A stretch of DNA of 38,319 nt, from the NCBI GenBank assembly GCA_027619995.1, contig JAQCGR010000002.1, positions 1-38,319 on the forward strand, read 5' to 3'. The position numbers were made by a program, and so were the translations under genes. Shown here in pieces: positions 9,758 to 30,232 of the stretch. The notes below the pieces were generated by a model. The model was not told the DNA's origin and did not search any database. It saw only the letters and a program-made list of their open reading frames with translations. Source of the DNA: Pseudomonadota bacterium (GTDB lineage: Bacteria; Pseudomonadota; Alphaproteobacteria; CADEGL01). Numbering within the stretch: the stretch's first letter is position 1; each line of letters starts with the position of its first letter.

Positions 9758-11266
<1,509 letters not shown>

Positions 11267-11315
11267 CACGCCGCCCCAATCCGGCCCGACCGATTCCGGC
11301 CCGGCCATTTCCGTC

Positions 11316-12597: not shown

Positions 12598-12702
12598 CTT
12601 CAATCCTTTCGTCGCGAAAAACGGAAACGCGGCGCCGAACCCATCTCCGGGCCGGCCGCCCCTGCAATTCGGTGTCATTCGCAGGTGTTTAACGCGACAA
12701 GA

Positions 12703-12726
12703 ATGAGAATGCAAACGATTCGCAAT
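12703..12726. promoter_or_regulatory. operator-like 24-mer upstream of the imelysin operon, shared with the Fe3+ ABC operon
   Basis: The reverse complement ATTGCGAATCGTTTGCATTCTCAT matches ATTGCGAATTGATCGCATTCGCAA (33121-33144) at 19/24 positions. It lies 106-129 nt upstream of the imelysin ATG, in an AT-richer spacer. Confidence 0.4.
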
Positions 12727-12789
12727 ACCGATTGCTTAACTGGTTTGGGATCGTTTCCGAAGGATGGAAAACGCGGCGAAAACGAAGAC

Positions 12790-14865
12790 TCAGGCGGCGC
12801 GAAGCCAGACGGCGGTATCGTGAAAGACCGCGCCGCCATTGGGCTGGCCCGCATCGGCGCTGACCAGGAGGTTAATACCGATCCCCTCCTCGAAGGCCTT
12901 GTTCGGCCATATGCTCTCGACCACGATCACGCCGCGCTGCAACCCGTCGAAGGGTTTGGCATGAACGACGACCGAGCCCTTCTTGTTGCCGATGCGCACC
13001 CGGTCCCCTTCCGCAAGGCCGAGAGCGGTGCAGTCCTCGGGATGGATCATCGCGGTCGGGCGACCCTCGCGCTTGATCGAGGTCGGGGTTTCCGTGAAGG
13101 AGGAATTGAGGTAGTTGCGCGCCGGCGCCGTAACCATCCGAAACGGCCGGTCGTCGGTCGCAACGTCGATCGCGTCGAAATGGTCCGCAAAGGCGGGCAT
13201 GTCCTTCGGATTGGCGCCCAGCCCGCCCCAGTCCGGCGCGAATCGGAACACGCCGTTCTCCGTCGGGAAACCGTCCAGGAAATGCGCGGTTTCGAAGGGT
13301 GGGCAAAGATCGTGGCCACCGGCCTGATAGATCGTCGCGGCATCGGGCAGGCCGCTCGCCCTCAGGCAATCGTCCATCAGTTCCCAGGCCGTCTTGGCAA
13401 AACCCGGATGCTCCGCGCCGAGCCGCTCGGCCAGCCCGCGAATCACATCGTGATTCGACCGCGCCTCGGCCTGCGGCTCGATCACCGCCTTGGTGACCTG
13501 CAGAAAGGTATGGCCGCTGCCCTTGTAAAAATCGTCATGCTCCAGGAAGGTCGTCGCGGGCAGGACGATATCGGCCATCGCCGCCGTCTCGGTCATGAAC
13601 TGTTCATGCACGCAGACGAACAGATCGTCGCGCGCGAATCCCTCATGCACCTTGGCGAGTTCCGGGGCCACCATCATCGGGTTCGTGTTCTGGATGAACA
13701 TGGCCATGACCGGCGGCCCGTCGCCCAGGTCGGCCTTGTCGCCGACGAGGCAGGGGCCGATGCGCGACTGATCCAGGCTGCGGATCGAGGGGTCGAGCAT
13801 GTCCAATCCCTTGATTTCCGTCTGGTCGATATGGGCGTAGACGTCACTCTGGCCGTAGAGCGCGCCGCCGCCCTCCTGCGCTCAGGCGCCTGTCACGCCC
13901 GGCAGGCAGGACACGGCATGGACCTGGGCCGCGCCGTTGCGCGTGCGCGAGAAGCCATAGCCGACCCGGATATAACTGCGCTTGGTCGAGCCGTAGAGCT
14001 TGGCGAAGGTTTCGATTTCCTCGACCGGCAGGCCCGTGATGGCCGAGGCCCATTGCGGGCCGCGCAGGCGCAGATGCTCCTCGAAGGCCTCGGAATGGTC
14101 GGTGTATTTGGCCAGGTATTCGCGGTCGGCCATGCCGTCGCGAAACAGGATATGCATGACCGCGCAGGCCAGCGCCCCATCGGTGCCCGGGCGCACCGCC
14201 AGATGCATATCGGCCTGGGCTGCCGTGCCGGTGCGGTAGGGATCGACGACGACCAGCTTGGCGCCGCGCGCCTTCCGCGCCTTGGCGATATGGGTCATCA
14301 CATTGACCTGGGTCGAAACCGGGTTGCCGCCCCAGACGACGACCAGATCGGAATGCTGGATCTCGCGCGCATCGACGCCGCGTTTCTCGCCCGCCCCCGC
14401 CTTCCACCCGGCATCGGCCAGATTGGTGCAGATCGTGCTGAACTGGCGGTCATAGCCCATCAAATGGCGCAGCCGTTCTATTCCGTCGCGCTGCACCAGG
14501 CCCATCGTGCCGGCGTAGAAATAGGGATAGACCGATTGCCGGCCGTGCTTCTCGGCGATCTCGGTCAGATTGTCGGCGACGATATCCAGCGCCTCGTCCC
14601 AGGAAATCGGCTCGAAGGCGGCCAGACCGACGCCCTTGTCGCCGACCCGGCGAAGCGGCTGCTTGAGCCGGTCCGGGTGATGCACCCGCTCGGCATAGCG
14701 CGCGACCTTGGCGCAGATCACTCCGTCCGTGTAATCGTTCCGCCGCGAACCGTGGACCCGCCCGATGGTCTTGGCGTCCAGGATCTCGACATCCAGCGCG
14801 CAGGTGCTGGGACAATCATGCGGACAGGCGCTGGGCAGGATCTGGATGGCATCGTCCCGCGGCAT
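12790..14865 (-). pseudogene. cytoplasmic molybdopterin (bis-MGD) oxidoreductase family protein interrupted by one in-frame TGA
   Basis: ORFs 13882-14865 (N-terminal half, 4Fe-4S motif CPHDCPSTC...C, ATG 14863-14865, GAGG upstream) and 12790-13806 (C-terminal half) are in the same frame. The 75 nt between them are open and encode family-like sequence (AQEGGGALYGQSDVYAHIDQTEIKGL). The only interruption is TGA at 13882-13884 (...CLPGVTGA-TGA-AQEGGG...). No signal peptide. Confidence 0.8.
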
Positions 14866-14962
14866 GGTTGGACCTCGCTGTCTGGATATCAGACTCGAAT
14901 CTATGCCTCGCGCCGAACCGCGGCAAGCCGGACGGGAAGGTCTGGCGAAAGCCTTCTCCCCC

Positions 14963-16117
14963 CTACTCCCATTCCGCGTCGGCCTGATCGGGCGCGCCGA
15001 TCAGGGTGCCGAGCGGATTGAAGGCGTAATAGACGAAGGCGAAGGTGAGCTGGAAGGGAATCGACACGAGGCCGTTTTCCGTCCGCCGCTCGACCGTCAC
15101 GATGCCGACATCGCGTCCTTGCGATACGAAGAGATGATCGAGCGCGGAGAGGCGCCCGGGTTCCCAGGTGATGACGAGATCGCCCTCCTTGAGCCTGCCG
15201 CGTTGGCGCAGATAAGCCAAGCTCCAAGCCTTGTCGCCGACCGCGACGACACGCGCCATGGGCGGCACCGCTGGATGGTAGGGCCCATCGTAGTAGGTCG
15301 TGAACGGCCCCGTGCGCGAATCATATTTGGGATAGGGGTTGCGCCCATAGGGATTGGAACCGCGATCGGTGGGAATCAACAATTGGCCGTCGGGATGGCG
15401 GGCCTGGAAGGACGCGACCGATTCCATCCGCGCCGGCAGCATGATCAGGCGCTCGCCCGCATGGGCGCCCGAAATGGCTTCGCCCGTGAACTGTTGCCAC
15501 CAGCTTTCGGTCTCGCGGTCGTACATGATGAGGTTCGAGGCCCGCAGCTTGCCCGTGACCCCGAAGTCGAGCAACTCGTCGCCCAGCCGCCTGTCGAAGA
15601 CGATTCCCGAATCGCAGAACGGACAATAGGTGACGGCCACGGGCACACCGCCGACCGTGTCGTTGACGACTTCGTGCCACATCAGGGTGCGCAGGGGATA
15701 GGCGCGCGCATCGTTGTTGAAGACGATGCTGATCACCGGTTCCTTCTTTGAAACGCTGCCCCTCGCCTCCGAGACCGGCTGGAAGATGGGCTGGTCGAGG
15801 GCCTGAACGATGCCGAAATCGACGGCTGTCACGATGCCCGCCGGATCGACCGTCATCTGATCGAAATCGCCCTTGGGAAACTCTTTCCGCCAGTACTCCA
15901 TCGGTCCGATCTTGGCGAGCGCCTGCGCCTCGGCGATGCCGTTCTTGATCGGTGGCCGCTCCGCCGGGGTCTCGACCTTGTAGGATTCGTGAGGATCGTT
16001 CGACTCGAAGAACCCCGTGAACAACCAGACCAGCACGCCCACGGCGATCGCCACAGCCACTGTCTGCAGCGCCAGCTTGATCATGGCCCGCTCGAACCCG
16101 AATCCGCCCTTGCTCAC
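14963..16117 (-). CDS. DUF3179 domain protein with N-terminal membrane anchor
   Basis: Core VAVTYCPFCDSGIVFDRRL...FGVTGKLRASNLIMYDRETESWWQQFTGEAISG matches my memory of DUF3179. TM segment LALQTVAVAIAVGVLVWLF. The tracked start is GTG at 16115-16117; an alternative ATG is at 16082-16084. Confidence 0.78.
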   Translation of the reverse strand: MSKGGFGFERAMIKLALQTVAVAIAVGVLVWLFTGFFESNDPHESYKVETPAERPPIKNGIAEAQALAKIGPMEYWRKEFPKGDFDQMTVDPAGIVTAVDFGIVQALDQPIFQPVSEARGSVSKKEPVISIVFNNDARAYPLRTLMWHEVVNDTVGGVPVAVTYCPFCDSGIVFDRRLGDELLDFGVTGKLRASNLIMYDRETESWWQQFTGEAISGAHAGERLIMLPARMESVASFQARHPDGQLLIPTDRGSNPYGRNPYPKYDSRTGPFTTYYDGPYHPAVPPMARVVAVGDKAWSLAYLRQRGRLKEGDLVITWEPGRLSALDHLFVSQGRDVGIVTVERRTENGLVSIPFQLTFAFVYYAFNPLGTLIGAPDQADAEWE

Positions 16118-16338
16118 GCCGTCCCATCCATTTCACAGGATTCCGCCACGCCGAATCCCAGCTGACTTTGGCCCCGACCCTAGCCCTGGGCGCGGGCACA
16201 GCAAGAGGAATGATTCCACGGCGCCCTGCGCGAGCGAAAAGAAGCACCGAATACGCCCTCGGCAGCGCCGGAAAAGCCCGATTCGGCTATGATGAAGGGA
16301 CCGCGCGAAACGCCGATCGGCAAAGCCAAGGCACACGA

Positions 16339-17550
16339 ATGAAAGACCCATCCTTCACCGCAGACCCCGCCGGACTTCGCCTCGCTCTGGAAGCACTTCT
16401 CGACGCGCCCGACGGGGCCGGTTCACAAGCGCTGCCGGACACGCTGCCGGAGAGCGGGCTGGGCGAAAAGGCCGTTATCGAACGGCTGAAGCCGATCGTA
16501 CTCGGCGGGGCGCGGCGTCTCGGCGCGCCTGATGCCTTCGCCCATATGGACCCGCCCACGCCCTGGATCGCCTGGGCAACGACCCAGTGGAACGCGGCAC
16601 TCAATCAGAATCTGCTGCACCCCGACGTGGCGCCCATCGCGCGCGGGATCGAAGCCCGGGTCGTCGATTGGCTCGCTCCCGGATTCGGCATGGACGGCGG
16701 CCATATGACGCCCGGCTCGACCGTCGCCAATCTGACCGCGCTCTGGGCCGCACGCGAGTTGCGCGGCGTTCGGGCCGTCATCGCCTCCGACGCCGCCCAT
16801 CTGTCGGTCGCCAAAGCAGCGCATCTGCTCGGCCTCGCCTTTCATCCCATCCCCGCCGATACTTGCGGAAGGTTGAACCGGGACCGGCTTCCCGACGATC
16901 TCGGCAACTGCGCCCTCGTCCTGACTGCCGGCACGACCAGTGCGGGCGCTATCGACGATCTCTCATTGTCGGGCCGCGCCGCCTGGACCCATATCGACGC
17001 AGCCTGGGCCGGGCCGCTGCGCTTCTCGACGCGCCACGCCGCGCGGCTCGATGGCATCCAGAATGCCGATTCCGTGGCGGTTTCGGCCCATAAATGGTTG
17101 TTCCAGCCGAAGGAGTCCGGGCTGATCCTGTTTCGCGACACGGAACCCGCCCATCAGGCGGTCAGTTTCGGCGGCGCCTATCTCGCCGCCCCGAATGTCG
17201 GCCTGCTCGGCTCTCACGGCGCGGTCGCAGTGCCGCTGCTCGCAACCCTGCTGGCCTGGGGCCGGACCGGGCTGGCAGAACGGATCGACAGGGCGATGGG
17301 ACTCGCGGAGGATCTCCGGCAGCGGCTCGACAGCCATCCCGGCGCGGTGCTGTTCGGGCCGAATGTCAGCGGCGTCCTGCTCTGGCGCCCGGCTTCGGAA
17401 GTGTCCGCGCCGGATTTCCTTGCCCGTCTGCCGGCCGGCTCGACCTCCGTCACCCGGATCGACGGCGTGGACTGGCTGCGCAACGTCGCGGCAAATCCCT
17501 GCGCCGATATCGACCTGCTATGGGCCGGGATCGAGCGCGCCCTCGCCTGA
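16339..17550 (+). CDS. pyridoxal-phosphate-dependent decarboxylase family protein (group II, fold type I)
   Basis: PLP-lysine segment SVAVSAHKWLFQPKESGLILFRD, with the preceding TAGTTSAGAIDD segment typical of group II decarboxylases. The start is placed at ATG 16339 (MKDPSFT...); the 57-codon upstream extension looks non-coding. Confidence 0.75.
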   Translation: MKDPSFTADPAGLRLALEALLDAPDGAGSQALPDTLPESGLGEKAVIERLKPIVLGGARRLGAPDAFAHMDPPTPWIAWATTQWNAALNQNLLHPDVAPIARGIEARVVDWLAPGFGMDGGHMTPGSTVANLTALWAARELRGVRAVIASDAAHLSVAKAAHLLGLAFHPIPADTCGRLNRDRLPDDLGNCALVLTAGTTSAGAIDDLSLSGRAAWTHIDAAWAGPLRFSTRHAARLDGIQNADSVAVSAHKWLFQPKESGLILFRDTEPAHQAVSFGGAYLAAPNVGLLGSHGAVAVPLLATLLAWGRTGLAERIDRAMGLAEDLRQRLDSHPGAVLFGPNVSGVLLWRPASEVSAPDFLARLPAGSTSVTRIDGVDWLRNVAANPCADIDLLWAGIERALA

Positions 17551-19288: not shown

Positions 19289-20569
19289 TCAGTCCAGCAC
19301 CTTGTTCGCGCTCTCCTTCATCCGCAGCACCACGGCGAAGGACACGGCGGCGGCCAGCATCAGGTACCACGCGATGGCCAGGTCGTCGTGGCTGCGCGCG
19401 ATCAGCCAGGTCGAGACCATCGGCGTGGTGCCGCCGAAGACTGCGAGGCAGACGTTGTAGCCGACGCTCAGGGCGCTGACCCGCACCCGGCGCGGGAAGG
19501 CTTCGGCCATCGCCGCCGGGACTGCACCGAAATAGGACGCGATGAAAACCGCCAACCCGCACTGGCCGAGCAGGATCATGACCGGGTCCGGGTGGTGCAT
19601 CAGCCAGATCAGCGGCCAGCCGAAGACGAGCAGCCCGCCCGTGCCGAACAACATCAAGGGTTTACGCCCGATTCTGTCCGAAAGCGCGGCGGCTGCCGGG
19701 ATCAGCAAACAGAGCAGCGCCATCGCCACGGTGTTGAGGTCGAGCGCGTCAGAGCGCGGCTCCTTCACCCGGTCGACCAGCCAGGTCACCATATAGACGA
19801 AGATCATGTAGAAGCCGACGGCGTTGACCACGTTGAAGCCGATCACCCGCAGCATCGAGCGCCATTGGTGGGTGAAGGCCTCGACCACCGGGTTCTTGGG
19901 CTTGTCCTCCTCCGCCGGCGCGGGCAGGTCGTGGATGCCCCGGCGCACCAGCAGGCCGACCAGGCCCACGGCGATGCCCAGGATGAAGGGCAGGCGCCAA
20001 CCCCAGGACTGGAGCGCCGCGTCGTCCAGCAGGTTGCTCATCGCCGCGCTGACGGCCGAGCCCAGGAGGATACCGCCGACCGCACCAAACAGGGCCCAGC
20101 TGGAGAAATAGCCGCGCCGGCCCTTGGGGGCATGTTCGGTCAGGAAGACGACGGAACTGGTGTATTCCCCCCCCACGGACAGGCCCTGGAGCATCCGCAT
20201 CAGCACCATCACCACGGCGGCGGCCGCGCCGATCGTCGCATGGCCGGGCAGCAGGCCGATCACGCAGGTCGGGATCGCCATGAGAGTGACGGAAAGGATG
20301 AGGGCGCGCTTGCGCCCGATCTTGTCGCCGATATAGCCGAAGATCAGCCCGCCGAAGGGCCGCATCAGGAAGCCTGCAGCAAAGGCCCCGAAGGCCGCGA
20401 CCAGAGAGGCCACCGGATCCTCGGAAGGAAAGAAGATGCCGGCGATGATCGGGGCGAAATAGCCGTAGACGGCGAAGTCGTACCATTCCAGCACATTGCC
20501 GACGACGCCGGCCATGATCGTCCGGCGGCGCGTTTCCGGCGTGATATCCGCCATGGTCGTGGCTGTCAT
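19289..20569 (-). CDS. MFS transporter, metabolite:H+ symporter (MHS, ProP/KgtP-like) family
   Basis: 426-codon hydrophobic ORF. N-terminal VGNVLEWYDFAVYGYFAPII and the GDKIGRKRAL loop are typical of MHS transporters. GGAGG upstream of the ATG at 20567-20569. Last gene of the oxygenase operon. Confidence 0.85.
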   Translation of the reverse strand: MTATTMADITPETRRRTIMAGVVGNVLEWYDFAVYGYFAPIIAGIFFPSEDPVASLVAAFGAFAAGFLMRPFGGLIFGYIGDKIGRKRALILSVTLMAIPTCVIGLLPGHATIGAAAAVVMVLMRMLQGLSVGGEYTSSVVFLTEHAPKGRRGYFSSWALFGAVGGILLGSAVSAAMSNLLDDAALQSWGWRLPFILGIAVGLVGLLVRRGIHDLPAPAEEDKPKNPVVEAFTHQWRSMLRVIGFNVVNAVGFYMIFVYMVTWLVDRVKEPRSDALDLNTVAMALLCLLIPAAAALSDRIGRKPLMLFGTGGLLVFGWPLIWLMHHPDPVMILLGQCGLAVFIASYFGAVPAAMAEAFPRRVRVSALSVGYNVCLAVFGGTTPMVSTWLIARSHDDLAIAWYLMLAAAVSFAVVLRMKESANKVLD

Positions 20570-20654
20570 GTCTCGCCTCCCCCCAGAAGCGGGCCCCCCG
20601 GCCCAACCGCGGCTATCGTGCCACTATTTTCCCGCTCCGGCTAGGCGGCGCGCG

Positions 20655-21080
20655 TTACCCTGCTTTTTCGGGCGGCAGGATCACGTCGACGTCGATTTCC
20701 ATCACGTATTGCGGCCGGGCGAAGCCCTTGATGATGGTGATGGCCATGGTCGGATGGACGCCCTTGAGCCATTTGCCGACCGTGTTGGTCACCGGTTGGA
20801 CGAAGGCGCGGTCCGAGAGCCAGAGGCGTACGGCGCAGATATCGTCGAATTTCGCCCCTGCCTCTTCCAGCAGATCCTTGACGTTCTGCATGGCATTGTC
20901 GGTCTGGGCCACCGGGTCTTCGGCGCCGCCGCTGATCTCATCCTTGCCGCGCACCCGGCCGGTCTGGCCCCGGATGATGACGTGATTGCCGGCCTTCACG
21001 ATCCAGCAGAGATCGTTGTCCAACTCCTGCTCCGGAAAGGCGTCCCGCGTGTTGTATTGGTGCAGCCGTTCGTGGGCCAT
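20655..21080 (-). CDS. RidA/YjgF/Rut-C family enamine/imine deaminase-like protein (copy 1)
   Basis: 141-codon ORF. Segments NAMQNVKDLLEEAGAKFDDI and ...VMEIDVDV are typical of the family. Starts 39 nt after the HpaB-like copy 1 stop. Confidence 0.82.
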   Translation of the reverse strand: MAHERLHQYNTRDAFPEQELDNDLCWIVKAGNHVIIRGQTGRVRGKDEISGGAEDPVAQTDNAMQNVKDLLEEAGAKFDDICAVRLWLSDRAFVQPVTNTVGKWLKGVHPTMAITIIKGFARPQYVMEIDVDVILPPEKAG

Positions 21081-21119
21081 CGTGTCCCCCTTGATGCGTA
21101 AAATCGGCCGTCGCGGCCC

Positions 21120-22565
21120 CTAGCCCATCACCCGGTCGCTCAATCCGGCGGCCTTCTTCACGAAGCCCAGCGGCGCATCCCAGTCGAAGGTCTGGTAGAG
21201 CGCGTTGAGATGGGCGTAGGGCGGCGCCTGGGCGAAGAGGTGGTAGCTGATCCGGTGGCCGGCATGACTGGAATTCACCAGGTCGCGGGCGAAAGCCAAT
21301 AGACGGCGCCGGTCCTCGGCGCCCCAGCGCTCGTTCACCGTATAATATTTCTTGAGCCACTCGGCCGATTCACCCTCGTGGAAGGAGCGGTGATCGGGGG
21401 TCAGGCAGATCTGACCGCCGACCAGCTCGCGCGTCATGTGCATCATCGCCGGCAGCTCGGCGCAGGCCATCGCCCGGCCGGCATAGAAGGTCGACTGGTG
21501 CGGCATCATGAAGCCCGCCGTGCTCTCCTCAGCCAGTTCGACCGAGGCGGTCTGGAAGGCATTTATCCCCTCGCGGTAGACGATCATGCGGGCGAGCTTC
21601 TCGCGGACCGCCGGATTCTTGTCGAGCCCGGTCTGGCGCGCGTTGAAGCTGGCCGCGCCGATCAGCATGTCTGCCAGATGGATCATCCGCTCGACGAAGG
21701 GAAAGCCGGTATAGCGGTGCAACATGGCCCGCACGAAGGCCGCCGCCTTGGTGTGGCGATAGAAAAAAACGTACTCCCATGGGATCGTCACATTGTCGAA
21801 GATGATCAGGCTGTCGACCTCGTCGAACCGGGTCGAAATGGGATAGTCCTCCGGGTCCAAGCCGCGCGAGAGCGGGCTGCGGCAGATATGCTTGAGGCCC
21901 GGCAGGTTCATCGGGCAAAGGAAGCCGAGGGCGTAGTCCGACAGGGTCTCGTTGCCCCAGTTCGCGATGGTCGGCTTGACGAAGGCTTCATGGGCATAGG
22001 CCGCGCCGGTCTCGTATTTGGCGCCCCGCACGACAATACCCGCATCCGTTTCGCCCACGACATGAAGCAGCATGTCCGGGTCCTGCTCCTGCGGCGGCAG
22101 GGAGCGATCGCCCTTGGGATCGGTATTGGCGGAGACGACGAAGCGGTCCTCGATGCGCACCCGTTCGACCTGTTTCGCGATATTCTCGCCGAAGCGGGGA
22201 TCGACCGCGTCCAGCATCTCGCGCCCGTCGAGCAGCGACCACAAGGCCCCGACCGTTTCGTCGCCCATGCGCAGGGCCAGGCCGCCGACATCCTGCATGA
22301 CAAGACGCACCCAATCGCGCTTCTGGCGCCAATCGTCCTTGCTGCGCGGCCCCAGATTGGTAATGGCGTGGGGGCCGCCCTCATCGGCATAGGTCATGGT
22401 CGCGGCGTAGCGCTCCTCATGCGCCATATCGTAGATACGCGCGCGCAGATCGACGGCGTGGCGAAAGGCCGGATGGTTGGGCACGTCCTTGACCCGCTCG
22501 CCGTCCAGCAGGACCGTGCGGCCGTCGCGGATCGACTCCCTGTATTCATCGCCGGTCATGCGCAC
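21120..22565 (-). CDS. 4-hydroxyphenylacetate 3-hydroxylase (HpaB) family flavin-dependent oxygenase component (copy 1)
   Basis: N-terminus TGDEYRESIRDGRTVLLDGERVKDVPNHPAF is HpaB-like, and similarity to the paralogue at 23803-25254 runs the full length. I prefer the GTG at 22563-22565 as start: it lies 9 nt after GAGGAG and gives V-R-M-T-G-D, aligning with M-L-R-T-G-D of copy 2. An ATG at 22557-22559 is the alternative. The tracked extension to 22646 would overlap DUF1028. Confidence 0.83.
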   Translation of the reverse strand: MRMTGDEYRESIRDGRTVLLDGERVKDVPNHPAFRHAVDLRARIYDMAHEERYAATMTYADEGGPHAITNLGPRSKDDWRQKRDWVRLVMQDVGGLALRMGDETVGALWSLLDGREMLDAVDPRFGENIAKQVERVRIEDRFVVSANTDPKGDRSLPPQEQDPDMLLHVVGETDAGIVVRGAKYETGAAYAHEAFVKPTIANWGNETLSDYALGFLCPMNLPGLKHICRSPLSRGLDPEDYPISTRFDEVDSLIIFDNVTIPWEYVFFYRHTKAAAFVRAMLHRYTGFPFVERMIHLADMLIGAASFNARQTGLDKNPAVREKLARMIVYREGINAFQTASVELAEESTAGFMMPHQSTFYAGRAMACAELPAMMHMTRELVGGQICLTPDHRSFHEGESAEWLKKYYTVNERWGAEDRRRLLAFARDLVNSSHAGHRISYHLFAQAPPYAHLNALYQTFDWDAPLGFVKKAAGLSDRVMG

Positions 22566-22611
22566 GGTATTTTTCTCCTCGTCATCTATTCTTGGTGCCG
22601 GAACAGCGGGC

Positions 22612-23289
22612 CTATGTGTTGCCCGGCACTCCGTAGGACTGCGCATCGGCGGGGCTCAGCGCGCGGGTCAGATACATGCCCATCTGCGGCTGGTAGTCGG
22701 TCCAGATTGAGCGCAGTCGGGCGATCGGGGCCTCGTCCCAATCGACCCGCAGGTCACAGATCGGCCAGATATACTCATCCTTGACCTGCACGCCGGCGGA
22801 ATGGACGTCGCCATGCTCGCCGCCCGCCTTCAGACCCGCTTCCAACCCGCGCAGCAGGCGCTCTACCAAGACCTCACCCTCGGCAGCCTCGAAGCCGCCG
22901 ACCATGGCCTGGGCCACGTCGGAGTTCTTGAGCAGGTTGCCAATGGCCACGCTGTCCTTGCCGATCGCCTCGCCCCGGTTCGCGAAGACCTCGTCCCCCG
23001 AATAGGCCAGCGGCGTATCGGAGGCATTGAGCACCGCGAGTTGACGATACGCGATGTTCGCGCCGTCCTCGGCAATCATGGCGTCCATCACCTCCTGAGC
23101 CGTGGCACCCTTGGCGAGCAGGTCGAGACCGAACTTGCCGAGGGCCGGATTGGTCTGGTTCTGGGTACCGATCACCCCCACCCCTTCGCGCACCCAGATA
23201 CAGCGCGCGCCGACGCAGATGCTGGAGGTGGTGATCGCAATGCCGAACTGGCCGGTGCGCCGGCACCGCCCACTGATGGAAAATGTCAT
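22612..23289 (-). CDS. DUF1028 family protein (Ntn-hydrolase fold)
   Basis: 225-codon ORF beginning MTFSISGRCRRTGQFGIAITTSSICVGARCIWVREGVGVIGTQNQTNP, which matches my memory of the DUF1028 N-terminus. Thr would be residue 1 after Met removal. Confidence 0.78.
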   Translation of the reverse strand: MTFSISGRCRRTGQFGIAITTSSICVGARCIWVREGVGVIGTQNQTNPALGKFGLDLLAKGATAQEVMDAMIAEDGANIAYRQLAVLNASDTPLAYSGDEVFANRGEAIGKDSVAIGNLLKNSDVAQAMVGGFEAAEGEVLVERLLRGLEAGLKAGGEHGDVHSAGVQVKDEYIWPICDLRVDWDEAPIARLRSIWTDYQPQMGMYLTRALSPADAQSYGVPGNT

Positions 23290-23354
23290 CTCTCTGCTCC
23301 CTCTCGCTTCGCTACCTGTTTACTGCCTGGCCGCTCGTCCCTTGAGGTCGCGGC

Positions 23355-23771
23355 CTAAAGCTCGTCGTCCGGGATCACCGCCTCGATGTCGATTTCCATC
23401 ATCAGCTCCGGCCGGGCCAGGCCGTTGACGATCAGGCCGGTCGAGCAGGGATGCACGCCCTTCAGCGCCGCGCCGACCGCGCGGTAAACCGCCCCGCGAT
23501 AGGCCCGATCGGTGATGTAGATCGTCGTCTTGCAGATATGGTCGAGCTTGGAGCCGGCCTCTTCGAGGAGCTGCTTGACGTTCTTCATCGCCTGTTCGGC
23601 CTGCGCCCCGGCATCGCCGATGCCGACGAGATTACCGTCGAGATCCATGCCGACCTGGCCGCGCAGGAACACCCGGTTCCCGGCCCGCACCGCCATGGCG
23701 AGATCGTTGTCGAGCCCCTGGCCCTCCCAGGCGTCCTTGGTGTTGAACTTGCGGATACGCTGATGCGCCAT
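23355..23771 (-). CDS. RidA/YjgF/Rut-C family enamine/imine deaminase-like protein (copy 2)
   Basis: Start placed at ATG 23769-23771 (MAHQRIRKFNTKDAWEG...), aligning with copy 1 (MAHERLHQYNTRDAFPE...). Shared blocks: LDNDL, NVK-LLEEAG, KGVHP, MEID. The tracked 59-codon upstream extension is rejected. Confidence 0.82.
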   Translation of the reverse strand: MAHQRIRKFNTKDAWEGQGLDNDLAMAVRAGNRVFLRGQVGMDLDGNLVGIGDAGAQAEQAMKNVKQLLEEAGSKLDHICKTTIYITDRAYRGAVYRAVGAALKGVHPCSTGLIVNGLARPELMMEIDIEAVIPDDEL

Positions 23772-23802
23772 CGTGGTTCCCCGTCGTTGTGAGTGGCCGG
23801 TC

Positions 23803-25254
23803 CTAGCCGCGAACCTTGTCCGAAAGGCCCGCGCATTTCTGCACGAAATCGAGCGCGTTCTCGAAATCGAAATTGTTGTAGACCGCGTTGAGATGAGCGA
23901 AAGGCGGCGACTGGGCGAACAGCTCGAAAGTCGTCCTGTGACCGGCATAGTCGCTGTTCAGCAAATCGCGCCCGAAGGCCAAGAGCCTGCGCCGATCCTC
24001 TGCCGTCCATTTCTCATTCACGGTGTAGAACTTGTCCATCCAGGGCTTGGTCGCCGGGGCCTGGAAGGTGGCGAAATCGGGGGTCACGCAGATCTGACCG
24101 CCGCAGAGTTCGCGCGCGATATGCGCCATGGCCGGATAGTTGCTGATGGCATGGACGCGGCCCGTATAAAGCAGCGACTGGTTCGGCATCAAAAGACCCT
24201 TGGGGCTCTTCTCGGCCATCGCGATGGCCGCCGTCAGATGGGCGTTGATGCCTTCGCGCCAGCCCGCCAGGGCGGCCAGCTTTTCGCGCACCGCCGGGTT
24301 GTTCTCGAGGCCCGTCTGGCGGCAATTGAACAGAGCCGTGCCGATCATCATGTCGGCCAGATAGAGCACGCGAAGGACGAAGGGATAGGCGCTGTAGCGG
24401 TGCAAAGTACCGCGAATGAAGGATGCCGCGCGGGTGTGACGGTAGAACAGCACATTCTCCCAAGGCACCAGCACATCGTCGAAGATCAGCAGGGTATCGA
24501 CCTCGTCGAACCGCGTGGCGATCGGATAGTCCTCGGGCTTCTTCTTATCGGCGAAACCAGTCCGGCAGATATGCTTGAGGCCCGGCGCGCCCATGTCGCA
24601 GATGAAGCCGAGCGCATAATCCGACAGCTTCTCGTCGCCCCAATTGGCGATGGTCGGCTTGACGAAGGCCTGGTTGGCATAGGCGGCCGCAGTCTCGTAT
24701 TTCGCGCCGCGCACGACGATGCCGGCATCGGTCTCCTTGGCCAGATGCAGCAGCATGTCCGGGTCCTGGTCCTGGGGCCGCTTGGAGCGGTCGCCCTTGG
24801 GATCGGTATTGGCCGAGACATGGAAGATATCGCATTGGATGACCCGCTCGATATGGGCCGCGATATTCTTGGAGAAGCGCGGATCGACCTCGTCCAGCAC
24901 GTCGGAGCCGTCGTAGAGCGACCACATCTCGCCCACCGTCTCGTCGCCGATCCGGATGGCGACGCCGCCCATCTCGCGCAGCACCGTATCGACCCAGCGG
25001 GTCTTGTCGTGCCAGTCCTGTTTTTCGCGCGGCAGCTTGTAGGAGGTCGTGTTCGACTCGCCCGTGGCCGGGTCGGTATAGGCCATGGCCTCGCGATGGG
25101 CGTCCTCATGCGCCATGTCGTAGATCCGCGCGCGCAGATCGACGATCGGCTTGAAGGCCGGATGGCTCGGCACGTCCTTGACGAGCTCGCCGTCGATATA
25201 GACCTCGCGCCCGTCGCGGATGGACTCACGATACTCGTCGCCGGTTCTCAGCAT
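23803..25254 (-). CDS. 4-hydroxyphenylacetate 3-hydroxylase (HpaB) family flavin-dependent oxygenase component (copy 2)
   Basis: 483-codon ORF starting MLRTGDEYRESIRDGREVYIDGELVKDVPSHPAF. Long blocks are identical to copy 1 (VSANTDPKGDRS, ETDAGIVVRGAKYET, AFVKPTIANWG, PGLKHICR, EDRRRLLAF). First gene of the operon, divergent from LysR. Confidence 0.85.
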   Translation of the reverse strand: MLRTGDEYRESIRDGREVYIDGELVKDVPSHPAFKPIVDLRARIYDMAHEDAHREAMAYTDPATGESNTTSYKLPREKQDWHDKTRWVDTVLREMGGVAIRIGDETVGEMWSLYDGSDVLDEVDPRFSKNIAAHIERVIQCDIFHVSANTDPKGDRSKRPQDQDPDMLLHLAKETDAGIVVRGAKYETAAAYANQAFVKPTIANWGDEKLSDYALGFICDMGAPGLKHICRTGFADKKKPEDYPIATRFDEVDTLLIFDDVLVPWENVLFYRHTRAASFIRGTLHRYSAYPFVLRVLYLADMMIGTALFNCRQTGLENNPAVREKLAALAGWREGINAHLTAAIAMAEKSPKGLLMPNQSLLYTGRVHAISNYPAMAHIARELCGGQICVTPDFATFQAPATKPWMDKFYTVNEKWTAEDRRRLLAFGRDLLNSDYAGHRTTFELFAQSPPFAHLNAVYNNFDFENALDFVQKCAGLSDKVRG

Positions 25255-25403
25255 GCCGCCGCCTACCTGAAGTGATTATGGGCAATCGCAGCCGATACTA
25301 AACCGCATCCGCCGCCGCGCCGCATCGATATCAATGATGAAGCCGCGATTTTTCGTCGCGCAACCGAATGGCGAGGGAAGAGTGCTGCGTCGGATTGGAT
25401 TTG

Positions 25404-25418
25404 AAAAATACTATTTTT
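25404..25418. promoter_or_regulatory. AT-only 7-1-7 palindrome AAAAATA-C-TATTTTT in the LysR/oxygenase divergent promoter region
   Basis: Perfect inverted repeat inside a striking AT-rich patch (25395-25440) of an otherwise GC-rich window, 25 nt upstream of the LysR ATG. A second dyad with LysR-type T-N11-A spacing (atcgatatcaatgat) is at 25324-25338. Confidence 0.3.
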
Positions 25419-25442
25419 TTGTCTATTGCATAGATTAAGCCT

Positions 25443-26363
25443 ATGCCATTCACCCTTCAGCAACTGCGCTATTTCGTGACCGCCGCCGAACTCGGCAGCG
25501 TGACCGGCGCCGCGCGCGAGTTGAGTATCTCGCAGCCCTCGGTCTCGGCAGCGATCCGCAAGCTGGAGGATCAGTTCGGCGCCCAGTTCGTCCTGCGCCA
25601 TCACGCCCAGGGCATTTCGTTGACCGCCGCCGGGCGGCGCTTCATGTCCCATGCCCGCAGCCTGCTGGCCCAGGCCCAGGCTCTCGAATCCGACACCCGT
25701 GGGTTGGGCGGCGATCTCGGCGGCAGCCTGGAACTGGGCTGCTATTTCAGCTTCGCGCCCTTCCTGCTGCCCGGCCTGTTGCGGGGCTTCTCCCAGGACC
25801 ATCCCGACGTGACCTTGCGGCTGCGCGAAAACGATCATGAAAGCCTGCGGCGGGATCTGGAGAGCGGCGCGATCGAGGTCGCCCTGCTCTATGACCTGGG
25901 ACTCGGCCAGGACCTGACGGTCGAGCCCCTGGCCGAACTGCTGCCCTACGCCCTGCTCCCCATCGATCATCCCCTCGCCCGCGCGCCGACCGTCGCCCTG
26001 CGCGACCTCGCGCGCGAACCGATGATCCTGCTCGACCTGCCGACCACACGCGAATATTTCCTGACCCGGTTCCGCGCCCTCGGCCTCGATCCGGTGATCG
26101 GCCTCCGAACCACCAGCTACGAGACCATTCGCGGGTTGGTCGCCAACGGGTTGGGCTATTCAGTGTTGGTCATGCGGCCCTATGGCGACCGGGCCTATGA
26201 CGGCCGCCGCCTGGCCTGCCGGCCGATCGCGGAACCCGTCCCGCCAACCCGCATCGTCCTCGCCCGCTCCGCCGCCATCCGGCCGAGTCCCGTGGTCGAG
26301 GCCTTTGCCGCCCTCGCCCGCGCCTATGTTCCCGCCGCGATTTCAGGGACAACGCCGGAGTAG
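25443..26363 (+). CDS. LysR family transcriptional regulator
   Basis: 306-codon ORF. N-terminal wHTH LQQLRYFVTAAELGSVTGAARELSISQPSVSAAIRKLE followed by a LysR substrate-binding domain. Divergent from the oxygenase operon across 188 nt. Confidence 0.9.
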   Translation: MPFTLQQLRYFVTAAELGSVTGAARELSISQPSVSAAIRKLEDQFGAQFVLRHHAQGISLTAAGRRFMSHARSLLAQAQALESDTRGLGGDLGGSLELGCYFSFAPFLLPGLLRGFSQDHPDVTLRLRENDHESLRRDLESGAIEVALLYDLGLGQDLTVEPLAELLPYALLPIDHPLARAPTVALRDLAREPMILLDLPTTREYFLTRFRALGLDPVIGLRTTSYETIRGLVANGLGYSVLVMRPYGDRAYDGRRLACRPIAEPVPPTRIVLARSAAIRPSPVVEAFAALARAYVPAAISGTTPE

Positions 26364-26471: not shown

Positions 26472-27836
26472 ATGTCGAAGGGCATGATGACCATCGAGGA
26501 ACTGCGCGCGGCGGTTGAAGCGGGCGAGATCGACACCGTTCTCGTCTGCTTCGTCGATATGCAGGGCCGATTGATCGGCAAGCGGGTGACCGGCTGGTTC
26601 TTCCTCGAACACGGCCAGGAAGAACTTCATGCCTGCGACTATCTGCTGACCGTCGATATGGCGATGGAGCCGGTGCCCGGCTATGCCACGGCGTCCTGGG
26701 ACAAGGGCTATGGCGATTTCGTCATGCGCCCCGATATGGCGACCTTGCGCCGCGCGCCCTGGCTCGAAGGCACCGCCCTCATGCTCGCCGATGTGCTGGA
26801 TCACCACGGTGAATTGCTCCCCCATGCCCCGCGCTCGATGCTCGCCAACCAACTCGCGAAAGCGCGGGAGATGGGCTTCGTCTCCAAGATCGGTACGGAA
26901 CTGGAACTCTATGTATTCGACGAGCCGGTGGAAGCGATGGCCGAGCGCGGGTTCCGCAACCCGAAGACGGCCGGGCGCTATATCCAGGACTATCACATCC
27001 TCCAGACGACGCGGGAGGAGCCGCTGATCCGCGCCATCCGCAACGCCTTGGACAATTCCGGCATCCCGGTCGAATTCTCGAAAGGCGAATGGGGCCCTGG
27101 TCAGGAGGAGATCAATCTGCGCTACGCCGAGGCGCAGGAGATGTGCGACCGGCACACCATCTACAAGAACGCGGCGAAGGAAATCGCCCATCTGCAGGGC
27201 AAGGCGGTCACCTTCATGGCCAAATGGAATCACGATATGGCCGGCAATTCCTGCCATATCCACAATTCCCTATGGACCGCCGATACGGACGAGGCCGTGA
27301 TGCACGATCCGGCGGACCCGCATGGCATGTCCCAGACCTTCAAGCACTACCTGGCCGGGCAGCTCGCGGCCGTGCGCGACATGACCTATTTCCTCGCCCC
27401 GACCATCAATTCCTACAAGCGTTTCCAGGCCGGCTCCTTCGCCCCGACCAAGGCGGTGTGGAGCGGCGACAACCGCACGGCCGGATTCCGGCTGGTCGGC
27501 CAGGGCTCGGCGCTGCGGGTCGAATGCCGGATTCCGGGCGCGGATGTGAACCCCTATCTCGCCACCGCCGCGTTGGTCGGCGCCGGGCTCCATGGCATCG
27601 AAAACCAGATGGAGCTCGAACCCATGGTCAAGGGCAACGCCTATCACCAGAAGGTCCGCGAAATTCCCAAGACCCTGGTCGATGCCATCGCACTGCTCGA
27701 CGGCTCGGACCTGATGCGCGCGATATTCGGCGATCAGGTAATCGACCACTACGTCCACACCGCGCGCTGGGAACAGGCCGAATTCGACCGCAAGGTCACA
27801 GATTGGGAATTGCAGCGCTACTTCGAACAGGTCTAG
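26472..27836 (+). CDS. glutamine synthetase family protein (GlnA-like; possibly a gamma-glutamyl-amine ligase)
   Basis: 454-codon ORF, AGGGGA upstream of the ATG at 26472. GS catalytic-domain signatures GNSCHIHNSLW and NPYLATAALVGAGLHGI. The size and N-terminus resemble PuuA/GlnA-paralogue ligases. Confidence 0.82.
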   Translation: MSKGMMTIEELRAAVEAGEIDTVLVCFVDMQGRLIGKRVTGWFFLEHGQEELHACDYLLTVDMAMEPVPGYATASWDKGYGDFVMRPDMATLRRAPWLEGTALMLADVLDHHGELLPHAPRSMLANQLAKAREMGFVSKIGTELELYVFDEPVEAMAERGFRNPKTAGRYIQDYHILQTTREEPLIRAIRNALDNSGIPVEFSKGEWGPGQEEINLRYAEAQEMCDRHTIYKNAAKEIAHLQGKAVTFMAKWNHDMAGNSCHIHNSLWTADTDEAVMHDPADPHGMSQTFKHYLAGQLAAVRDMTYFLAPTINSYKRFQAGSFAPTKAVWSGDNRTAGFRLVGQGSALRVECRIPGADVNPYLATAALVGAGLHGIENQMELEPMVKGNAYHQKVREIPKTLVDAIALLDGSDLMRAIFGDQVIDHYVHTARWEQAEFDRKVTDWELQRYFEQV

Positions 27837-27877: not shown

Positions 27878-28444
27878 CTAGTCGTCGGTCAGCATCTTCA
27901 TCTTGCCGTGGCCGCCGGCGTCCTTGTCCATCCCATCCTTGTCCATCCCGTCATGGCCGGTACCGTGCATCTTGCCGCCATGGCTGGCACCCATCGCGTT
28001 CGACGCCTTGACGATGACCTCAACCTGGATCGGACCCGATCGTTCGAGGATCAGGGTCAGAGGAAAGCTCTCGCCCTCCTTCAGAGGCTCCGTCAGACCG
28101 AGCAGCATCACATGCAGGCCGCCCGGCTCCATTATCGCGGTCTCGCCCGCCGGCAGATCGACAGCGGCGGCCGGGCGCATCTTCGCCACCCCGTCATCCA
28201 TCATATGAGTGTGCAGTTCGGCCTTGGCCGCGACGGGACTCTCGACGCCGACGATGCGGTCTGCCTTGTCACCCCTGTTCGACAATGTGATGAATGCCGC
28301 GCCGTTGGTCGTGCCTGCCAGGCTCGCGTTGGCCCAGACATCGACCACTTTGATGCCTTGAGCGTTGTCATCGGCTAAAGCGTGCGAACTCAGATGCATG
28401 ACGGCCGCGGCGAAAAGCACCGCGGCGATACGAATGGTGTACAT
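27878..28444 (-). CDS. copper chaperone PCu(A)C (DUF461) with His/Met/Asp-rich C-terminal tail
   Basis: Signal peptide, then the PCuAC core with HTHMM...M and GGLHVML copper-ligand segments. The extra tail is GASHGGKMHGTGHDGMDKDGMDKDAGGHGKMKM. Confidence 0.8.
   Translation of the reverse strand: MYTIRIAAVLFAAAVMHLSSHALADDNAQGIKVVDVWANASLAGTTNGAAFITLSNRGDKADRIVGVESPVAAKAELHTHMMDDGVAKMRPAAAVDLPAGETAIMEPGGLHVMLLGLTEPLKEGESFPLTLILERSGPIQVEVIVKASNAMGASHGGKMHGTGHDGMDKDGMDKDAGGHGKMKMLTDD
27921..27950. repeat. 2 x 15-bp tandem repeat inside the PCuAC tail (encodes DGMDK-DGMDK)
   Basis: tccttgtccatccca / tccttgtccatcccg, 14/15 identical, adjacent and in frame. Confidence 0.9.
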
Positions 28445-28959: not shown

Positions 28960-29062
28960 GGCCGGACTATAGTTCACCCCCCGGCCGGGGCCACAGTTTC
29001 ATTGCCCGCCCGTCGCCGGATTCGTAGAAATGACCCTCGCGCCCTCAGAGGAAAGAAACGCC

Positions 29063-30232
29063 ATGTCGATCAAGCTCACCGGCAATTGGAGCTACCCCAC
29101 CGCCATGCGCTTTGGCGCGGGCCGGATCGCCGAATTGCCGGATGCCTGCAAGGCCCTGGGCATGGCCCGGCCGCTCCTGGTCACCGATCCCGGCCTGGCC
29201 GGCCTGCCTATGATTGCGGCGGCCTTGGCCCGGAACAGCGATGCCGGCCTGCCGACCGGCCTGTTCAGCGAGGTGCGCGGCAATCCGGTGGGCGCGAATG
29301 TCGACGCGGGCGTCGCGGTCTACCGGGCCGGCGGCCATGACGGCATGATCGCCTTTGGCGGCGGCAGCGCGATGGACGCCGCCAAGGGCATCGCCCTGAT
29401 GGTCGGCCAGGACCGGCCGATCTGGGATTTCGAGGATATCGACGACAACTGGACGCGCGCCAAGGCCGATGCGATCGCCCCCATCGTGGCCGTGCCGACA
29501 ACGGCAGGCACCGGATCGGAGGTCGGCCGTGCCGGCGTCATCGTGAACGAGGCGACCCATACCAAGGTCATCGTCTTCCACCCGCGCCTGCTGCCCGGAC
29601 AGGTCATCCTCGATCCGGAACTAACGGTGGGCCTGCCGCGGCATGTCACCGCGGCGACGGGCATGGACGCGCTGGCCCATAACCTGGAAGCCTTCTGCGC
29701 GCCGACCTTCCATCCCATGGGCGAAGGAATCGCGGTCGAGGGCATGCGTCTCGTCAAGGAATTCCTGCCCCGCGCGGTGGCCGACGGTACCGATATCGAG
29801 GCGCGCGGCAACATGATGGCGGCGGCCAGCATGGGCGCCGTCGCCTTCCAGAAGGGCCTGGGCGCGATCCATTCGCTGAGCCATCCCCTGGGCGCCGTCT
29901 ACGACACCCATCACGGCCTGACCAATGCCGTGGTCATGCCCTATGTGCTGGATTTCAACCGCCCGGCCATTGAAGAGAAATGCGCCCGCCTCGCGCGCTG
30001 GTTGGATCTACCCGAGCCGGGTTTCGACGGTGTCCGCCGCTGGGTTCTCGACCTGCGGGCGGAACTGGGTATTCCCCATACCCTGGCCGAGATCGGCGTG
30101 GATGACCGCCGCATCGACGAGATCGCCGCCATGGCGACGACCGACCCTAGCGCGGGCACAAATCCCGTGCCGCTCGACGATGCCGGACACCGCGCCATGC
30201 TCGAAGCCGCCCTCGCCGGCCACCTGGCCTGA
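29063..30232 (+). CDS. iron-containing (group III) alcohol dehydrogenase
   Basis: AGAGGAAAG upstream of the ATG at 29063. NAD-binding FGGGSAMDAAKG and metal-binding His cluster IHSLSHPLGAVYDTHHG. Confidence 0.85.
   Translation: MSIKLTGNWSYPTAMRFGAGRIAELPDACKALGMARPLLVTDPGLAGLPMIAAALARNSDAGLPTGLFSEVRGNPVGANVDAGVAVYRAGGHDGMIAFGGGSAMDAAKGIALMVGQDRPIWDFEDIDDNWTRAKADAIAPIVAVPTTAGTGSEVGRAGVIVNEATHTKVIVFHPRLLPGQVILDPELTVGLPRHVTAATGMDALAHNLEAFCAPTFHPMGEGIAVEGMRLVKEFLPRAVADGTDIEARGNMMAAASMGAVAFQKGLGAIHSLSHPLGAVYDTHHGLTNAVVMPYVLDFNRPAIEEKCARLARWLDLPEPGFDGVRRWVLDLRAELGIPHTLAEIGVDDRRIDEIAAMATTDPSAGTNPVPLDDAGHRAMLEAALAGHLA

Follow-up and report, generated by a model that had tools for sequence, protein, structure and literature searches.

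In this study, we examined a 38,319-nt stretch of alphaproteobacterial DNA (positions 1 to 38,319 of contig JAQCGR010000002.1, forward strand; assembly GCA_027619995.1), hereafter the window, which carries an operon of six minus-strand genes for two HpaB-like oxygenases (HpaB1 and HpaB2), two Rid-family proteins (RidA1 and RidA2), a DUF1028 protein and a transporter, with a LysR-type regulator gene in divergent orientation. We consider it rather likely that the operon encodes a variant form of the lower histamine pathway, which leads from imidazole-4-acetate (ImAA) to aspartate, with a two-component oxygenase of the HpaB type in the stead of the monooxygenase HinF. The regulator, RidA1 and the DUF1028 protein are orthologous to those of HinK-linked clusters, the linkage of oxygenase, Rid and DUF1028 genes is conserved across genomes, the oxygenase gene occupies the position of hinF, and flavin reductase genes are linked to it in relatives. 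As such, the locus does not represent a categorically new pathway; what would be new is an HpaB-type oxygenase within the Hin pathway, together with a lineage-specific second oxygenase-Rid pair.

Histamine is converted to ImAA in Pseudomonas by HinC and HinD, after which the products of hinFLHG take ImAA to aspartate: HinF is a FAD monooxygenase (EC 1.14.13.5), HinL is described as an 'enamine deaminase', HinH as an amidase, and HinG as an amidase (EC 3.5.1.8) or 'peptidic bond hydrolase' (PMC6467879, PMC8231116). Both papers summarise the work of de la Torre et al. (2018) on the hinFLHG and HinK system of Pseudomonas putida U and P. aeruginosa, and it is on these summaries that we draw here. 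HinK itself is a LysR regulator that binds ImAA and activates hinFLHG as well as hinDAC (PMC8231116), and PDB entry 6M5F is HinK of P. aeruginosa (PMC11495319).

An initial annotation, made from the letters of this DNA alone, had described six minus-strand genes and a divergent LysR gene, all of which proved to be open reading frames (ORFs) at the coordinates below, with gaps of 31, 65, 46, 39 and 85 nt within the operon. The families to which it had assigned them (HpaB N- and C-terminal domains, RidA, DUF1028, the major facilitator superfamily (MFS) and LysR) were borne out by Pfam profile search.

25443–26363, plus strand: HinK-like LysR-type regulator, divergent from the operon (Pfam HTH_1 and LysR_substrate)
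25255–25442, no strand: divergent regulatory spacer of 188 nt with an AT-rich patch (read from the sequence)
23803–25254, minus strand: HpaB-family oxygenase 1 (HpaB1), at the hinF position (Pfam HpaB_N and HpaB)
23355–23771, minus strand: Rid-family protein 1 (RidA1), a non-canonical RidA and putative HinL orthologue (Pfam Ribonuc_L-PSP)
22612–23289, minus strand: DUF1028 Ntn-hydrolase, putative HinH orthologue (Pfam DUF1028, E=4e-59)
21120–22565, minus strand: HpaB-family oxygenase 2 (HpaB2), a divergent paralogue of HpaB1 (Pfam HpaB_N and HpaB)
20655–21080, minus strand: Rid-family protein 2 (RidA2), a paralogue of the HinL-type Rid (Pfam Ribonuc_L-PSP)
19289–20569, minus strand: MFS metabolite:H+ symporter, last gene of the operon (Pfam Sugar_tr/MFS_1)

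The start of HpaB2 at 22565 is a GTG codon, with a GAGGAG ribosome-binding site upstream. Within the spacer, no match to the sigma-70 consensus was found, and an ATC-N9-GAT dyad at 25324–25338 is not conserved in related loci, not even in the 96% relative L001, which is why we have not assigned an operator.

Kinship with the histamine clusters

Relatives of HpaB1 numbered at least 591 in a scan of species-representative genomes. The best 80 of these are 71–96% identical to it and come from Alpha-, Beta- and Gammaproteobacteria, Actinomycetota (Arthrobacter, Gaiellales), Chloroflexota (Thermomicrobiales) and Acidobacteriota (Bryobacterales), and a 60% relative resides on a plasmid of Bacillus badius. 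Carriers available in culture include Pseudomonas sp. UMAB-08, Paracoccus aminophilus JCM 7686 (pAMI6), B. badius (pPM400) and Oceanibacterium hippocampi. Overall, 93 loci (bearing L-numbers) were collected, and neighbourhoods were counted at 79 of them. Such a survey had been proposed by the initial annotation, and it revealed a conserved unit in which an HpaB-like gene is followed by a Rid gene (74 of the 79 loci) and a DUF1028 gene (59 of 79), usually with a LysR gene divergent or adjacent. Over more than 80 loci from at least six phyla, this unit goes together with a LysR gene of the HinK type. The picture of two oxygenase-Rid modules flanking DUF1028 is therefore accurate for the window, but not as a general layout.

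Two of the collected loci connect this unit to the Hin pathway. In Burkholderia multivorans (L093), genes for a flavin monooxygenase-like (FMO-like) FAD monooxygenase, RidA, DUF1028 and an ArgE-like M20 deacylase adjoin an 83.5% HinK orthologue, and both their order and composition match hinF-L-H-G. In Pseudomonas sp. UMAB-08 (L058), a flavin reductase gene is followed in order by an HpaB-like–Rid–DUF1028–M20 series, an 89% HinK orthologue, and a gene pair for an ALDH-family protein and a class III aminotransferase. Judged by its genes, the latter is a hinK-hinD-hinC neighbourhood as in PAO1, with an HpaB-type enzyme at the place of hinF. Even though the oxygenases of L058 and L093 differ, their Rid, DUF1028 and M20 proteins are 85.5%, 69% and 71% identical, as expected if both clusters process identical intermediates. 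The Rid proteins of these two HinK-linked clusters share 66% identity with RidA1, and the DUF1028 proteins encoded at their HinH position share 49–50% with that of the window. Because of these identities, we regard RidA1 as the orthologue of HinL, the DUF1028 protein as that of HinH, and the regulator as HinK-like. The initial annotation knew of no characterised pathway with this gene set, a view that is superseded by the published Pseudomonas pathway for histamine and ImAA. Among the public protein names seen, those of the Burkholderia cluster and other orthologues do not yet carry the Hin assignment; they are generic ('DUF1028', 'RidA family protein', 'acetylornithine deacetylase'), and the Burkholderia proteins have no Hin labels.

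For the window regulator, the best PDB matches were the HinK structures 3FZV and 6M5F (E=3-4e-71), with the next full-length LysR-type transcriptional regulator following at 1e-28, and its identity to HinK is 44.5% over 265 aa. Furthermore, LysR genes that adjoin the HpaB-Rid-DUF1028 cassette in other phyla encode proteins with 36–51% identity to HinK, as found by BLAST over all collected loci. The window protein is predicted to be an ImAA-responsive activator of the HinK type.

Both Rid proteins deviate from canonical RidA. At the position of Arg105 of E. coli RidA, 67 of 71 RidA1-type proteins have a Ser, and the RidA2 type has Met or Gln; the position of E. coli Ser30 is an invariant Arg in both types, and Glu120 is kept. 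The combination of Ser at the former and Arg at the latter position is common to RidA1 and the Rid proteins of L093 and L058, and RidA2 is 42–46% identical to HinL orthologues. Scores against the NCBIfam Rid and RutC models stayed below the cut-offs, reaching 42 and 24 bits for RutC where 169 are required. Since both proteins are without the catalytic Arg105, and carry an invariant Arg elsewhere, the quenching of imines that the initial annotation had ascribed to RidA-family proteins is not simply transferable to them. Its analogy with RutC does hold as part of the general chemical inference: the Rut pathway also uses a two-component flavin monooxygenase (RutA/RutF) on an N-heterocycle, and then an amidohydrolase and a Rid-family protein on the opened ring. 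However, there is no family homology between RutA, RutB and RutC and the proteins in the window, as RutA is luciferase-like and RutB isochorismatase-like, the substrate is a different one, and RutC is a weak match to the window Rid proteins.

As noted before, the DUF1028 protein begins with MTFSI, and Thr2 is invariant in all 60 of the 60 orthologues. An AF2 model, from a structure prediction run with database hits, reached a pLDDT of 93. In a Foldseek search, this model was closest to 2IMH (TM 0.8), followed by proteasome-beta, HslV and Anbu structures (TM 0.4-0.5). While 2IMH (SPO2555 of Ruegeria pomeroyi) shares both the fold and the N-terminal Thr, it is a paralogue with 28% identity to the window protein, and has neither an assigned function nor a comparable gene context. 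We predict that the DUF1028 protein acts as a C-N hydrolase on the opened ring, at either the formiminoaspartate or the imidazolone-acetate step.

An HpaB-family oxygenase at the hinF position

HpaB1 and HpaB2 match the Pfam domains HpaB_N (E=8e-85 and 7e-81) and HpaB (E=1e-53 and 5e-48). Neither reaches the NCBIfam HpaB equivalogs TIGR02309 and TIGR02310, of which one requires 480 bits (their scores being 209 and 236) and the other 885 bits (scores of 169 and 161). Identity to solved HpaB or chlorophenol monooxygenases is about 30%, and the best PDB match, HpaB of T. thermophilus, has an E of only 1e-46. 4-Hydroxybutyryl-CoA dehydratases (AbfD-like), which were considered as another candidate, matched more weakly still (1U8V and 6VJR, E=1e-30 to 1e-33), and the flavin reductases adjacent to the oxygenase in relatives argue for a monooxygenase and against such a dehydratase. 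In the published structure of T. thermophilus HpaB, the phenol is reportedly bound by Arg100, Tyr104 and His142 (Kim et al. 2007). The corresponding positions read Arg, Glu and Ser, and are invariant in 92 sequences (86 HpaB1-type and 6 HpaB2-type). The resemblance to HpaBC of E. coli and T. thermophilus, and to chlorophenol and nitrophenol monooxygenases, lies in the HpaB_N and HpaB domains, the conserved Arg100, and a small HpaC/RutF-like flavin reductase encoded beside the oxygenase in 26 relatives. They differ, apart from the low identity, in that the phenol-activating Tyr104 and His142 are replaced, and in that HpaB1 is linked to C-N hydrolases instead of ring-cleavage dioxygenases. Both oxygenases fall outside any clade of known specificity, whereas their neighbours do belong to a published pathway. 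Across at least six phyla, HpaB1 is 71–77% identical, and invariance reaches 97% or more at 188 sites, which argues for a single common substrate.

The initial annotation had pointed out that no flavin reductase is encoded in cis. This holds for the 38-kb window, in which none was found by tblastn (best E=0.42) or by Pfam annotation of the other window genes, but not for its relatives: a Flavin_Reduct gene adjoins the oxygenase in 15 loci by strict clustering and in 26 by BLAST, among which L083, L086 and L091, and these linked reductases score best against RutF, FerA and HpaC. Three loci encode a fusion of the reductase with a LysR_substrate domain, whose identity to the effector-binding domain of HinK is 34–41%:

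L051, 13881–15020: reductase-LysR_substrate fusion
L090, 13767–15122: reductase-LysR_substrate fusion (Paracoccus aminophilus pAMI6)
L088, 6161–7324: reductase-LysR_substrate fusion

With its HinK-like ligand-binding domain, such a fusion suggests that flavin reduction is gated by the substrate, and it may constitute a substrate-gated reductase for the HpaB-type oxygenase. Moreover, the operon of B. badius includes a FAD-synthetase-like gene. It is because of the linked reductases, this FAD-synthetase-like gene and the three fusions that we consider the oxygenase to be of a two-component nature.

Compared to the published Hin pathway, the window has a HinK-type LysR, a HinL-type Rid with the same Ser-for-Arg signature, and the same order of oxygenase, Rid and DUF1028 genes (with M20 following in many relatives), the first of which encodes a flavin monooxygenase in both cases. 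The main difference is that HinF is a single-component, FMO-like enzyme, whereas the HpaB-family oxygenase would require a separate flavin reductase. A HinF-like ORF was found neither in the window nor in 90 of the 93 loci, and was seen solely in L093, L041 and L050. From its position and company, the HpaB-like protein probably takes the place of HinF as a two-component ImAA monooxygenase; with the substrate deduced from this context, we propose with moderate confidence that the HpaB-type enzyme substitutes for HinF without being its orthologue. What further sets the window apart from the hin clusters is a second, divergent pair of oxygenase and Rid, the MFS transporter, and neighbouring genes for a glutamine-synthetase-like (GS-like) protein and a Fe-dependent alcohol dehydrogenase (Fe-ADH).

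Proposed pathway and competing explanations

In the pathway that we propose, the HinK-like regulator would sense ImAA and activate the divergent operon, while ImAA would enter the cell via the MFS symporter. HpaB1 would then hydroxylate the imidazole ring, i.e. carry out the HinF reaction (EC 1.14.13.5), with reduced flavin supplied by a reductase that is encoded elsewhere in the genome. Next, the HinL-type Rid and HinH-type DUF1028 proteins would process the unstable hydroxy-imidazole or imidazolone intermediate, by opening the ring and hydrolysing C-N bonds, in the direction of N-formimino- and N-formyl-aspartate, from which a deformylase encoded elsewhere (HinG, an ArgE-like M20 protein, in Pseudomonas) would release aspartate. 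The classical ImAA route consists of the enzymes EC 1.14.13.5, 3.5.3.5 and 3.5.1.8, and it is from this route that we infer the step that each of the Rid and DUF1028 proteins may catalyse. With regard to uptake, the MFS protein scores 400 bits against TIGR00883, just under the cut-off of 443, and is encoded at the same position in L001, L006, L081 and L083. It is predicted to be an importer of the carboxylate substrate.

Several observations weigh against this reading, or limit it. To our knowledge, no HpaB-family enzyme hydroxylates an imidazole. Genes for a HinG-type (ArgE-like) M20 protein, HinC- and HinD-like proteins, and a reductase were not found in the window, although an ArgE-like M20 gene follows DUF1028 in 23 related loci. 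Equating HinH with DUF1028 is inferential, as it draws on gene order, published descriptors and adjacency to HinK, and RidA1 and DUF1028 were matched to the proteins of L058 and L093, which stand in for the published HinL and HinH (PA5391/PA5392, and those of P. putida). The 44.5% identity between the window regulator and HinK leaves room for another effector, so that specificity could differ. In L041 (9456–15230) and L050 (~9900–15150), moreover, HpaB-like and HinF-like oxygenases occur in one operon together with Rid, DUF1028 and M20, the HinF-like proteins being 68–70% identical to that of B. multivorans. The two oxygenase types may thus not be equivalent, and these operons could represent a transitional state, or two enzymes acting on different substrates. 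Finally, the flanks of the cluster are variable (Rieske and StcD-like demethylases, PhyH and, at one locus, a luciferase-type monooxygenase), and the GS-like and Fe-ADH genes conserved beside it are not accounted for by the Hin model.

The recurrent extras at related loci are the ArgE-like M20 deacylase gene after DUF1028 (20-23 loci) and a PhyH dioxygenase gene (12 loci), as well as GS-like, ALDH, SDR, DAO and ABC-transporter genes. Apart from these, Rieske and StcD-like demethylase genes flank the cluster in L088. In L083, PxpABC 5-oxoprolinase genes (13553–16087) lie just 3' of the double-module operon; they are not among the clusters that recur in at least four loci. In L087 (7578–11140; Methyloligella sp. 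2.7D), Rid-DUF1028 and a HinK-like LysR (42%) adjoin a luciferase-like monooxygenase gene, in a locus without an HpaB-like gene. This monooxygenase could represent yet another, third kind of partner for Rid and DUF1028.

Some of these observations also speak for the foremost alternative, in which another electron-rich N-heteroaromatic carboxylate, such as methyl-imidazoleacetate, imidazole-propionate, imidazole-lactate or pyrrole-2-carboxylate, is hydroxylated by the HpaB-like oxygenase, and the lactam or enamine so formed is opened and deaminated by the HinL and HinH homologues. The presence of both oxygenase types in L041 and L050 suggests distinct roles, and the differing flanks (including PxpABC of L083) and the distance of the regulator from HinK fit this explanation as well. 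Pyrrole-2-carboxylate monooxygenase (orphan EC 1.14.13.130) is furthermore a two-component enzyme according to the title of Becker et al. (1997), and its gene was not identified in any paper found by our literature search. As a specific identity for HpaB1, this enzyme was downgraded once the links to HinK, HinL and HinH had emerged, and it is retained here only as part of this alternative. We nevertheless regard a different substrate as unlikely, given that the HpaB-type cluster of UMAB-08 lies directly beside the HinK orthologue and hinD- and hinC-like genes, which would take histamine to ImAA, that Rid, DUF1028 and M20 are 69–86% identical between HpaB-type and HinF-type clusters, and that HpaB1 is so strongly conserved across phyla.

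A second alternative arises from two genes beyond the regulator:

26472–27836, plus strand: GS-like gene of the gamma-glutamyl-amine synthetase type, 3' of the LysR gene (Pfam Gln-synt_C)
29030–30232, plus strand: Fe-ADH gene (Pfam Fe-ADH)

The GS-like protein stays under all NCBIfam cut-offs, and genes for its 63–65% orthologues adjoin the operon in L002, L006, L015, L081 and L083. Among NCBIfam models, Fe-ADH comes closest to 4-hydroxybutyrate dehydrogenase (362 bits where 500 are required), and 59–68% orthologues adjoin the GS-like gene in L002, L004, L006, L011, L017, L018, L026, L081, L083 and L086. It could be envisaged that an amine or amino alcohol is glutamylated by the GS-like protein and oxidised by Fe-ADH and the oxygenases, with DUF1028 serving as gamma-glutamyl-amide hydrolase, comparable to the Puu and Ipu routes. 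The conservation of both genes beside the operon in the window's lineage would agree with such a gamma-glutamylation route, as would the divergent promoter region they share with it in L081, where the GS-like gene is directly divergent from HpaB1, and the fact that known gamma-glutamyl hydrolases, GGT among them, belong to the Thr-Ntn hydrolases. However, the GS-like gene is present in only ~14-20 of more than 85 loci, HpaB-Rid-DUF1028 is kept without it in all other phyla, and HinK-linked clusters devoid of a GS-like gene encode a hydrolase to which the DUF1028 protein is orthologous, which renders this route very improbable. The least credible option, to which we give next to no weight, is a 3-hydroxylase of the classical two-component kind for 4-hydroxyphenylacetate or phenol, as the Pfam domains, the best PDB match and the public label '4-hydroxyphenylacetate 3-monooxygenase' of HpaB1 relatives would have it, for besides the missed equivalog cut-offs, the weak PDB match and the exchange of Tyr104 and His142 for Glu and Ser in 92 of 92 sequences, no extradiol dioxygenase or hpa genes were found in the window or among the recurrent neighbours. 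On this point the initial annotation holds up, as does its general chemistry of an N-containing substrate or N-heterocycle that is oxidatively processed via imine or enamine intermediates.

Returning to ImAA as the substrate, our literature search found no paper in which the catabolism of histamine or imidazole is connected with DUF1028 or enzymes of the HpaB type, and searching for DUF1028, or for HpaB, RidA and Ntn together, yielded nothing relevant either. Should the proposed pathway be correct, it would add a substrate class to the HpaB family, with an Arg/Glu/Ser site instead of Arg/Tyr/His, and present a clean case of non-orthologous enzyme displacement within a conserved operon. It would also provide a testable function for an HpaB subfamily that at least 591 species-level genomes encode under the wrong label of phenol hydroxylase, as well as for a non-canonical Rid subfamily and for DUF1028. 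According to earlier reports, the pathway is common in Pseudomonas and does not occur in Gram-positives; histamine and ImAA catabolism would then be far more widespread, including Gram-positives, marine Alphaproteobacteria and many soil and marine phyla. A more far-reaching possibility, which we put forward only tentatively, is that this large, cross-phylum HpaB subfamily, annotated throughout as '4-hydroxyphenylacetate 3-hydroxylase', is in fact an imidazole-ring (ImAA) monooxygenase which, Pseudomonas and Burkholderia aside, has displaced HinF in the majority of bacteria, and that the HpaB2-RidA2 pair extends the pathway to a second imidazole substrate feeding into the shared DUF1028.

The second oxygenase-Rid pair and neighbouring genes

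The paralogy of the two modules is as described earlier: HpaB1 and HpaB2 are 63% identical and contain every one of the identical blocks that had been listed, and RidA1 and RidA2, at 46% identity, contain every listed motif. HpaB2 retains 160 of the 188 sites that are invariant in HpaB1, with four fixed changes (H134Q, A289G, N358H and L362F). The pair was found only in the window, L001 (a Rhodospirillaceae metagenome-assembled genome, 96% identical), L006, L081/L082, and L083, the closest NCBI and syntenic double-module relative. About ten protein clusters make up the HpaB2 clade before matches merge into the HpaB1 family. The HpaB2 proteins of double-module loci form a monophyletic group, which in a neighbour-joining tree is placed at the base of the whole HpaB1 family. 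This basal placement may be due to long-branch attraction, and HpaB2 is either an old paralogue or a fast-evolving duplicate. Going by its distribution and sequence, the pair is a lineage-specific, divergent duplicate confined to a few Rhodospirillaceae-like lineages, probably performing the same chemistry on a related substrate, or providing added capacity.

The GS-like and Fe-ADH genes are part of a larger set that, in the window's lineage (L081-L083, L002, L006, L015 and L086), is found repeatedly next to the operon, together with a gene for a pyridoxal-phosphate (PLP)-dependent decarboxylase that in the window is located at 16168–17550 (plus strand). In L081 and L086, an ELFV-type amino-acid dehydrogenase gene joins this set. 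The GS-like, Fe-ADH and PLP-decarboxylase genes may encode an upstream route that makes the substrate of the operon. Between the GS-like and Fe-ADH genes of the window lies a PCu(A)C copper-chaperone gene (27878–28444, minus strand), whereas the two are directly adjacent in L081 and L083.

On the other side of the operon, two minus-strand ORFs (12790–13806 and 13882–14865) match residues 350-687 (61%) and 4-324 (68%) of one 695-aa molybdopterin oxidoreductase. This protein is intact in nine related loci, where it is encoded 3' of the HpaB-Rid-DUF1028 set, and its split state in the window reflects either a frameshift, a pseudogene or an error in the assembly. FdhF/YdeP and fdhD genes are found near L093 and L091. 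A formate dehydrogenase was not used as support for the proposed pathway, as the 695-aa protein scores 248 bits for Fdh-alpha, where 666 are required, and shows no relationship to the YdeP of L093.

Lastly, a RidA-DUF1028-ArgE series with HinL/H/G-like products is present on more than 100 Klebsiella and E. coli plasmids, its DUF1028 protein being ~47-50% identical to that of the window. On the one plasmid examined (the E. coli IncFIB plasmid NZ_CP081712.1; L092, 7562–9848), an ISKpn28 transposase gene is located upstream, at the place where the oxygenase would be expected, and the whole looks like a truncated hin-type cassette.

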